Source of the DNA: Eledone cirrhosa
Taxonomy: Eukaryota
Assembly: GCA_964016885.1 (NCBI GenBank)
Contig: OZ024761.1
Location: forward strand, 23,188,001-23,252,000
Direction of reading: 5' to 3'
Length of the DNA: 64,000 nt
The position numbers and the translations under genes were made by a program. This document shows, one piece after another, positions 8,248-9,903 of this stretch. The stretch's first letter is position 1. Every line of letters begins with the position of its first letter. A model generated the notes under the pieces. That model saw nothing but the letters and a program-made list of their open reading frames with translations, was not told the DNA's origin and searched no databases.

Positions 8248-8592
8248 ATGAACAATTTGTTTCATAAAAGACCATTAATTTTAAACTTCTGCCAGAAAAT
8301 TGTCGGAGATGCTGAGTCATTAATTTGCCATTGTTTTCCTCGTCAAATGGATGAATTAAAAGAGCTGAAATTCTGTAGTACCAGTAATATTCTCGAATCT
8401 GAATCTTTGGCACAAATACTTGAAACAAATCCTAACAATGGTGAAGCGTACTCCTACGAAATTGTTACAGGATACCTTAAAGTAAAACCAATTCTTCAAA
8501 ATTTAGAATCTCACGCCTCGTTAATCCGATCTTGGGTTACATTCATTTCCACTCAATTCGAGAATATAAGGAATATTGGAATCTCCACTCCG
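8248..8592 (+). CDS. Exon 1 of a divergent proteasome activator PA28/REG (PSME1/2/3-family) paralog
   Basis: ATG at 8248 with an in-frame upstream TAA (8233). The translation NFCQKIVGDAESLICHCFPRQMDEL aligns by eye to PSME3 SFRERITSEAEDLVANFFPKKLLEL, and KVKPILQNLESHASLIRSWVTFISTQFENIRNIGISTP aligns to [38 protein letters not shown]. A phase-0 donor CCG|GTAAAT sits at 8592/8593. Confidence 0.85.
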
Positions 8593-8949
8593 GTAAATGT
8601 CTGTCTGTCTCCATCTGTCTATTTTTCATTTTCTTTTTAGTTTTACTTCTTCCTCGCCCACATTCTTGAGGGGGTCGTGGGGTCACACTCTCTCCAGAGT
8701 AACAAGAATCACTATTTATCCTTGGAGGGGGGGGGGGGGGTAATTATGTGTGTACGTATGTATGTATTGGCTACACCCCTGACATGACCAAAACCCCCAA
8801 AGAGAAAACGGTGGAGGTCAATCAGAGAGAGGTTTCTCCGGTAGGAGTAAAAAAAAAGAAAAGGCCCTGGATTGAATTGAATAAATGTATGTACGAGGTG
8901 AGCCATAAGTCACGCACCAAAGTATTAAAAACAATTTAGTATAGATATA

Positions 8950-9443
8950 CAGGGTGGTCCGAAAGTCTTGTCACCCCCCCCTACCAAAAAGTAATGAGAA
9001 ACAGTTTGTTCCCATCACAGTATCGTCCTCTTCGGAGGAGCTGGTTTACCGAATCTTGCAGTGAGGTCATGTCACACATCCTCCATGCTCTTGCCAGAAT
9101 ACACACGATCATGTGTCCATACACTTGCAAGCAACCTCACTTCCAAACTGGAGGAGCTCTGAAATAGAAAATTAGATTATTATTGGCAGTATCGGTAGAG
9201 GGTCGGACGCCATGCTTTGTAGCATAGAGTTACGCCCCTTTACGGTCTGAGTTCAAATTCCGTCGAGGTTTACTTTGCCTTTCATCCTTACGGGGTCGAT
9301 AAAATAAAGTACCAGTAATGCACTGGGTAATTGCTGGCCTTGTGCCAAATGTAGAAACAATTATTATTATAAATTATAATTAATATTATATATTATATTA
9401 TTAAAACAATATGTAGGGGTGACCAGACTATCGGACCAGCCTG
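8950..9443 (-). mobile_element. Non-autonomous Tc1/mariner-superfamily element, copy 2, inside the PA28-like intron
   Basis: TIRs CAGGGTGGTCCGAAAGTCTTGTCACCCC / GGGGTGACCAGACTATCGGACCAGCCTG with TA flanks. The minus strand retains an N-terminal transposase remnant (LLASVWTHDR..GKSMEDV*HDLTARFGKPAPPKRTIL, DUF4817-like HTH from memory). Carries a SINE at ~9183-9365. Confidence 0.82.
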
Positions 9444-9508
9444 TATATTGAGTTGATAAAAATATTAACGTGATCTACGCTAGTGTCGCTTTGTTTTAGA
9501 GAGAGAAG

Positions 9509-9553
<45 letters not shown>

Positions 9554-9588
9554 TTATTCCCTACTTCTCTTTCTCCCCTTGTTTTTAG

Positions 9589-9888
9589 GACGAAATGTTT
9601 CAGAAATTACGACTCGTTGCTGATTACTGCAAACAAACTTTAGACTCTCTATCAGCCTATTTCTCTCAGAAGGATGAATTGTTAGCGCTCTGCGAACGCC
9701 ACAAAGACGACACCCTTGACGAAAAAATGGTTTTCTGTCAAGAACTGGAATATCTGACTAAACAACACGCCGTCAAAATTGATGCCATGGAAGAAGATAT
9801 TAAAGGGCAGTTTATAATATTAACCGGAATAATTCACAACATTCTTATGGATTTACGGCCATTGGCAACCCGAGGTAATCGAAATTAA
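9589..9888 (+). CDS. Exon 2 (terminal) of the PA28/REG-like gene
   Basis: Polypyrimidine tract plus TTTTTAG acceptor ending 9588, phase 0, matching exon 1. DEMFQKLRLVADYCKQTLDSLSAYF aligns to PSME3 EETVAELRTVESEAASYLDQISRYY. Stop TAA at 9886-9888. Confidence 0.85.
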   Translation, partial: DEMFQKLRLVADYCKQTLDSLSAYFSQKDELLALCERHKDDTLDEKMVFCQELEYLTKQHAVKIDAMEEDIKGQFIILTGIIHNILMDLRPLATRGNRN

Positions 9889-9897
9889 GCATTAATT

Positions 9898-9903
9898 AAT
9901 AAA
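9898..9903 (+). terminator. Candidate polyadenylation signal of the PA28-like gene
   Basis: AATAAA about 10 nt downstream of the stop codon. Confidence 0.5.

Follow-up and report, generated by a model that had tools for sequence, protein, structure and literature searches.

A fast-evolving octopod paralogue of the proteasome activator PA28gamma without the conserved activation loop and the terminal tyrosine

In the window, the whole stretch of 64,000 nucleotides of Eledone cirrhosa DNA that was analysed, a gene with two coding exons was identified at 8248..9903 (Table 1). Reading of the frame and the splice sites confirmed the initial annotation, in which the exons 8248-8592 and 9589-9888 were joined in phase to an uninterrupted frame of 214 amino acids. 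The exons contribute 115 and 99 codons, are joined at predicted GT-AG sites in phase 0 and contain no internal stop codon, and the start codon, both splice sites, the stop codon and a polyadenylation signal could all be located. The frame opens with the ATG at 8248, with an in-frame stop just ahead of 8236, and closes with TAA at 9886-9888. The donor reads CCG/GTAAAT after 8592 and the acceptor ...TTTTTAG/GA before 9589; the latter has the best pyrimidine tract (17/18) among the 62 AG sites of the intron, in which a simple pattern scan found no branch-point-like word. Use of an alternative in-frame GT six bases downstream of the 8592 donor would result in a protein of 216 amino acids. Of the two donors, it is the one at 8592 that is in register with an intron of canonical PSME3. 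Upstream ATGs occur only at 7972, 8015 and 8021, with none between 8022 and 8247, and a TATA-like word is present at 7990. The polyadenylation signal is the sole AATAAA or ATTAAA within the 520 nt scanned after 9880.

Table 1. Coordinates of the features of the PA28-derived gene, numbered from the first nucleotide of the window.
Feature	Position	Strand	Remarks
Likely 5' UTR / proximal promoter	8030..8247	+	CpG-rich, observed/expected 1.48
Coding exon 1, residues 1-115	8248..8592	+	helix 1, shortened insert, helix 2, degenerate activation loop
PA28_N match, residues 11-40	8278..8367	+	helix 1 with FP kink
Short linker replacing the homolog-specific insert, residues 44-67	8377..8448	+	from alignment; KKRR absent
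Activation-loop position, residues 101-112	8548..8583	+	from alignment to human PSME3
Intron, 996 nt, GT-AG, phase 0	8593..9588	+	contains a non-autonomous DNA-transposon copy
Coding exon 2, residues 116-214 and TAA	9589..9888	+	helices 3 and 4, tail
C-terminal tail, residues 205-214	9856..9885	+	Pro ninth from the end, terminal Tyr missing
AATAAA polyadenylation signal	9898..9903	+	9 nt past the stop

The relation to PA28 had been proposed from an alignment by eye and is supported here, with PA28 as the best match by sequence, by profile and by fold. When tested with HMMER against PF02251 and PF02252, exon 1 exceeded the PA28_N cut-off (22.2 bits, cut-off 21.2; E 1.5e-4), but exon 2 alone did not match PA28_C or any other PA28 model in Pfam, and its matches in PDB and Pfam were at chance level. 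A genome-wide search with PA28_C did not recover the paralogue locus on contig C22 either. The best PDB sequence match of exon 1 was human PSME3 (E 0.011), and exon 2 could be aligned to PSME3 via profiles. One of the Octopus vulgaris copies described below (P0002) exceeded the PA28_C cut-off. A profile of the paralogues retrieved PSME3 at E 2e-8, with PA28 chains making up 8 of the 10 PDB sequences listed, and alignment of the paralogue and canonical profiles with hhalign covered 171 columns at a probability of 97.2%. The atlas placed the second O. vulgaris copy, P0008, beside PA28 clusters (0.92), whereas exon 1 as a query retrieved nothing usable from the atlas.

For the fold, the O. vulgaris relative P0008 and not the E. 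cirrhosa protein was modelled. With four canonical rows in the alignment, AlphaFold2 returned a model with a pLDDT of 84 and four long helices, in which the loop was the least confident part. All 15 matches listed by Foldseek were PA28 proteins, at E 1.5e-3 or weaker. The top match in VIA was mouse PA28alpha (Z 14.4, rmsd 3.7, 188 residues aligned), with Plasmodium PA28 6dfk (Z 13.3) and a designed bundle (Z 13.3) in the tied range; 3ipm_O had Z 13.0. Modelling with the 8 paralogue rows alone resulted in an unreliable model (pLDDT 41) with unchanged helix boundaries. Because the confident model needed canonical PA28 rows, the fold result is not independent of the sequence homology. By descent and fold, the locus encodes a PA28-derived protein from the PA28gamma/PSME3 lineage.

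A canonical PSME3 was sought in the same genome (3.0 Gb in 1796 contigs, with the window on contig C22), and one intact copy was found as a separate gene on another chromosome, contig C2, with the standard loop, KKRR and the terminal Tyr. This protein is 97.4% identical to that of O. bimaculoides (P0011), 95.3% to that of Argonauta and 88.5-89.7% to two cuttlefish-cluster proteins. Eight coding exons were located and an acceptor precedes the first, which gives at least eight introns. The C2 gene is the PA28gamma/PSME3 orthologue; the copy on C22 has neither the long insert nor the nuclear signal and does not evolve slowly. In the alignment, the only intron of the paralogue coincides in column and phase with the canonical intron that follows GVSIQ, as would be expected by chance in about 1% of cases. 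Two of the eight canonical introns lie in the deleted insert; the paralogue retains one of the remaining six and lacks five. Because five of the six alignable introns are missing and the copy is unlinked to its parent on C2, the paralogue likely arose by retroposition of a partly spliced PSME3 transcript. DNA duplication with later intron loss may be the alternative origin, since the copy is so old that the coding sequences are no longer alike at silent sites: 221 of 585 nucleotides are identical, with 54 of 195 third positions and 3 of 12 fourfold sites, which are saturated. The best 60 blastn matches between the C2 and C22 loci all lie outside exons. Searches with four protein queries revealed no further paralogue copy in the E. 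cirrhosa genome, and none was present within 134 kb. Of the 106 long frames present in the window and the 50 kb upstream, none was recognisable as a neighbour gene that could inform on synteny, a scan that covers long frames and not short exons.

Orthologues were sought in other cephalopods, and open, spliced gene models were found in O. vulgaris (two), O. sinensis and Argonauta. An HMMER search with exon 1 gave seven representative matches, three relatives and four long repetitive proteins (P0003, P0004, P0006, P0007); the latter, three of which were inspected, were rejected as repeat artefacts. A profile search, passed by 4 of 1472 candidates, added two relatives, and exon 1 retrieved none in a word-index search of proteins of 203-2000 amino acids. 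The O. vulgaris proteins CAI9740496.1 (P0008) and CAI9718612.1 (P0002) are encoded on different contigs, of 45.6 and 215.6 Mb, respectively; both are open, and they are 86% identical (27 of 198 residues differ). The O. sinensis protein XP_036355773.1 (P0010) is annotated as uncharacterized LOC118761736 and the Argonauta hians protein GAB1608197.1 (P0005) as hypothetical. Two unnamed fragments (P0001 and P0009) were also obtained, and the alignment of P0001 runs off at the same donor position. The identity of the E. cirrhosa protein is 49.7% with P0008 and 35.9% with P0005, and P0008 is 42.2% identical to P0005; in tblastn, exon 2 was 47-48% identical to the O. vulgaris paralogues. Across the same species pairs canonical PSME3 is 95-97% identical, and the paralogue evolves 21-27 times faster. 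In the tree, the five full-length paralogues grouped in a single clade (100/100) with a very long stem. Their attachment inside Octopoda had a support of 45/67, and an earlier origin was not rejected (p-AU 0.336). It is concluded that the duplication predates the Octopus-Argonauta split. Neither the HMMER nor the profile search recovered a squid or cuttlefish relative, a result that speaks only weakly for a true absence. Within the reach of these searches, the initial description as a lineage-specific paralogue holds.

The fast rate raises the possibility of a decaying or silent duplicate, with a frame that is open by chance or from which selection was recently released. Every known functional element is lost, exon 2 alone no longer matches PA28_C and the Argonauta model ends early, as expected for decay. 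However, open spliced models exist in three named species and in E. cirrhosa at 36-50% identity, a second open copy is present in O. vulgaris, and the splice sites and the polyadenylation signal are intact. A neutral simulation applied random substitution, with indels not counted. After drift to 50%, 42% and 36% identity an open frame survived in 3, 3 and 0 of 5000 runs, respectively, and even at 71% identity per branch it survived in only 96 of 5000. Gene models in databases are open by construction and disabled octopod copies would escape notice; the simulation therefore shows selection on these lineages and not on all octopods. Conservation is also biased to the helices and the hydrophobic columns, as columns that are hydrophobic in the canonical protein are still so in all three paralogue lineages in 46/79 cases, vs. 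13/109. The four helices together are 41-56% identical among these lineages, whereas the loop is identical at 3/12, 0/12 and 1/12 positions (Fisher p 0.067, 0.004 and 0.007 for helices versus loop, the lineage pairs not being independent). Conservation is highest in helices 2 and 4 and in the belt segment of helix 1 (0.50-0.67 in 10-residue blocks). Neither a disabled frame or splice site nor an absence of constraint, by which a pseudogene would be recognised, was thus observed, and decay is the least probable of the readings considered here.

The loop sequence TQFENIRNI, as read in the initial annotation, indeed aligns without gaps with human PRIEDGNNF, in which register G150 and N151 correspond to I107 and R108. 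The length of the loop is exactly unchanged, its identity to the canonical loop is 1-3/12, and the conserved activation loop, a defining feature of 11S activators, is absent. Among the paralogues the loop is the lowest of 138 gap-free windows of 12 residues (0.08-0.11), whereas it is the highest window when canonical octopus and Gordionus PSME3 are compared (0.92-1.0). The loop had been called remodelled; this is right in that the canonical motif is lost, but no new conserved motif has taken its place. As the least conserved segment among relatives, the loop is therefore read as a sign of released constraint on gate opening, and selection on gate opening appears to have been released while the fold was kept.

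The C-terminus reads RGNRN and lacks the Tyr, as had been noted. The terminal Tyr is absent from all six paralogue ends, of which five retain the tail Pro. This Pro is ninth, seventh or fourteenth from the end, compared with tenth in the canonical protein, and is followed by 8, 6, 13 or no residues depending on the species, the E. cirrhosa tail being one residue short. The 11S docking tail, with a terminal Tyr and a Pro tenth from the end, is thus not found in the paralogue. The homolog-specific insert and its KKRR had both been described as absent. The KKRR is gone, but the insert is shortened and not wholly missing, with 24 residues in E. cirrhosa and 16 in Octopus compared with 57 in the canonical protein. 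Runs of at least three K/R are found in none of five paralogues, and KKRR or KKRK in all six canonical sequences. Two cysteines of exon 2, at positions 129 and 150, are shared without exception by the four types of full-length paralogue and are missing from canonical PSME3, and the paralogues contain 5-7 cysteines in total compared with 2-4. A disulfide or a metal site at these two positions is possible.

Retention of the tail Pro, with an E. cirrhosa tail only one residue short, could be explained by an atypical activator or cap that docks on the 20S by its C-terminal carboxylate and acts via its altered loop, either weakly or on a specialised proteasome. The presence of a diverged tandem Rpt1 copy in the genome would fit such a proteasome, but a matching diverged alpha ring was not found: among the alpha loci located, seven are different and canonical-looking and one is an alpha1 fragment, and the search was incomplete, with six beta loci found and one beta subunit missed. 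The names of these 20S subunits are presumed. PA26, which has a different loop and uses its carboxylate to dock on Lys66, provides a precedent (PMC7915322, PMC10526260). In the paralogues, however, the tail differs in length from species to species, the relatives share no loop motif and the equivalents of G150 and N151 are I and R. An atypical cap is therefore regarded as quite unlikely.

Tentatively favoured, at a probability of roughly 0.45, is the reading of the paralogue as a proteasome-uncoupled, likely cytoplasmic, self-assembling ring or scaffold that neither opens nor stably caps the 20S. The subunits would assemble into a ring of their own via the kept helices 2 and 4; without the loop motif and the terminal Tyr this ring would neither gate nor stably dock on the 20S, and it could serve as a proteasome-independent scaffold. 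In the PA28 ring, helix 2 of one subunit packs against helix 4 of the adjacent one, with an additional helix-1 belt (PMC7915322), and assembly is considered probable because the helices that form this subunit contact are among the best-kept segments. The paralogue presumably does not open the gate, since loop and tail mutants of mammalian PA28 likewise fail to do so: deletion of the tail abolishes 20S binding and loop mutants bind without activating (PMC7854634). PA28gamma G150S, N151Y and P245Y were reported to still polymerise and to keep the proteasome-independent effect on p53 (PMC2265109). A cytoplasmic location is predicted because the paralogue has no basic run; PA28gamma itself carries a second, N-terminal nuclear signal (PMC7915322). 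Expression might be restricted, possibly to the male germ line, which is a guess by analogy to testis-specific proteasome paralogues (PMC9265791). As the proteasome-independent p53/MDM2 role of PA28gamma needs the insert that the paralogue has lost (PMC2265109), a scaffold role would be new and has no named client. Loss of the insert alone is uninformative on activation (PMC10526260). The kept tail Pro and the exact loop length count against the uncoupled reading.

Ring formation is not assured, because loop mutations can also destabilise heptamers (PMC10526260) and recombinant PA28beta was reported as a monomer (PMC7915322). The protein might instead be a monomeric or small-oligomer four-helix adaptor for a new partner. 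With such an adaptor would agree the destabilising effect of loop mutations and the finding that 33 of the 52 paralogue-invariant columns differ from the canonical residue, including the two new cysteines. Conservation is, on the other hand, best in helices 2 and 4 and the helix-1 belt, although these also form the core of the subunit itself, and an adaptor without a ring is considered improbable.

The initial annotation had offered a modulator, a dominant-negative subunit or a proteasome-independent role. Of these three, the proteasome-independent role fits best, and competition for the 20S as a cap fits worst because the tail is not conserved. To act as a dominant-negative subunit, the paralogue would have to enter mixed rings together with a partner that is only about 21% identical. 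Such mixed heptamers with PA28gamma, in which the paralogue would dilute loops, tails and nuclear signals and thereby lower or relocate activity, are a doubtful though not a negligible alternative. In helix 2 about 30% of the residues are still those of the canonical protein (9-10/33), the loop length is unchanged, and vertebrate duplicates do make mixed rings, in which dead beta loops cost about half of the activity (PMC7854634). However, the overall identity to canonical PSME3 is only 17-22%, helix 4 retains 4-7 of 42-43 residues, and the canonical partner is 95-97% invariant while the paralogue drifts 21-27 times faster. A subunit that has to fit an unchanging partner on both faces should not drift so fast, which disfavours the damping role. 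Unlikely, taken as a whole, is a stronger form in which the paralogue would be a natural off-switch of PA28gamma in one tissue, likely the male germ line, shutting down or relocating ubiquitin-independent nuclear proteolysis and belonging, with the diverged Rpt copies, to a specialised set of regulators. If true, this would be the first animal PA28 duplicate retained for inhibition and not for activation.

The paralogue can be compared with several known systems. With PA28gamma/REGgamma/PSME3 (PF02251 and PF02252; PDB 7yqc, 7yqd) the paralogue shares descent, the helix layout, the FP/KP kinks, the Trp of helix 2, the tail Pro and one intron. It differs by an identity of about 21%, by the loss of the loop motif, the terminal Tyr and the KKRR of the insert, and by one intron compared with at least eight. 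Vertebrate PA28alpha/beta (PSME1/2) and tunicate PSMEb/c/d likewise combine a slow ancestral copy with a long-branch duplicate (PMC4453063), and the tunicate paralogues are described as 54-61% identical across species. Unlike the octopod copy, PA28alpha and PA28beta keep a near-identical loop and the terminal Tyr, and they activate the 20S (PMC10526260). The same two elements are altered in engineered PA28 mutants (alpha N146Y, gamma G150S/N151Y, gamma P245Y and tail deletions), but the octopod copy has lost loop and tail together, naturally, and has been retained in different octopod lineages. A short or divergent linker in a four-helix subunit is also found in trypanosome PA26 and Plasmodium PA28; each of these is the only copy and does open the gate, with a conserved loop that the octopod copy lacks. 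The testis-specific subunits PSMA8 of mammals and Prosalpha6T of Drosophila are fast, retrocopy-like duplicates of housekeeping genes (PMC9265791). They differ in being core subunits that retain their function.

Duplication of PA28 was described by Fort et al. 2015 in jawed vertebrates and tunicates only (PMC4453063); the word mollusc is absent from the text of that paper, and Octopus, Lottia and Aplysia are absent from those of its supplements that were searched. In a literature search with subscription papers largely outside its reach, neither a cephalopod PA28 paralogue nor LOC118761736 was found. The octopod gene represents a third, independent animal PA28 duplication, which databases list as an uncharacterised protein. 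Both elements called invariant in 11S regulators, including the activation loop that is termed invariant in a review (PMC10526260), are lost while the body of the protein is still under selection. Reportedly, less than 5% of the PA28gamma in cells is on the 20S, and whether the protein has proteasome-independent functions is described as an open question in the field (PMC7915322). A naturally uncoupled PA28 would provide a direct handle on this question, and if the paralogue forms mixed rings it would be a natural inhibitor.

Several further observations were made in the E. cirrhosa genome. The sole alpha7/PSMA3-like locus found (L018, G000:C9:32.87 Mb), a presumed identity, is intronless with an open frame, which suggests a retrocopy that replaced its parent. 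An isolated fragment (L034, G000:C2:76.78 Mb) is similar to a single exon of the C14 alpha1 gene and carries several substitutions. A tandem Rpt1/PSMC2 pair is present at G000:C22:6.84-6.89 Mb (L057, L061, L067, L068), in which one copy has changes at 9 of the 58 positions translated around Walker A and the intron flanks translate identically. On C2, two Rpt4-like loci (L052 and L053, at 77.60 and 77.63 Mb) lie 36 kb apart and are 99.5% identical over 1662 nt, yet show three amino-acid changes in an exon. The Rpt2- and Rpt6-like exons (L054, L056) also look altered from the usual sequence. The Rpt1 and Rpt4 duplications look far younger than the PA28 copy.

In the surroundings of the gene, a Tc1/mariner element lies just upstream, at 6815-7710 on the minus strand of the window; it is broken, has inverted ends and contains remnants of a Mos1-type HTH. 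A short non-autonomous element is present twice, in the intron (8945-9448) and upstream (about 6444-7773), with inverted ends of about 33 nt; the copies are 95% alike over 178 nt, and the mariner element interrupts the upstream one. A tandem repeat 40-46 kb upstream of the window is spanned by long open frames (L016:1732-5126); no stretch of their Pfam matches passed on its own, and these matches are probably repeat artefacts. An assembly gap of 200 bases at 20492-20691 of the window lies far from the gene.
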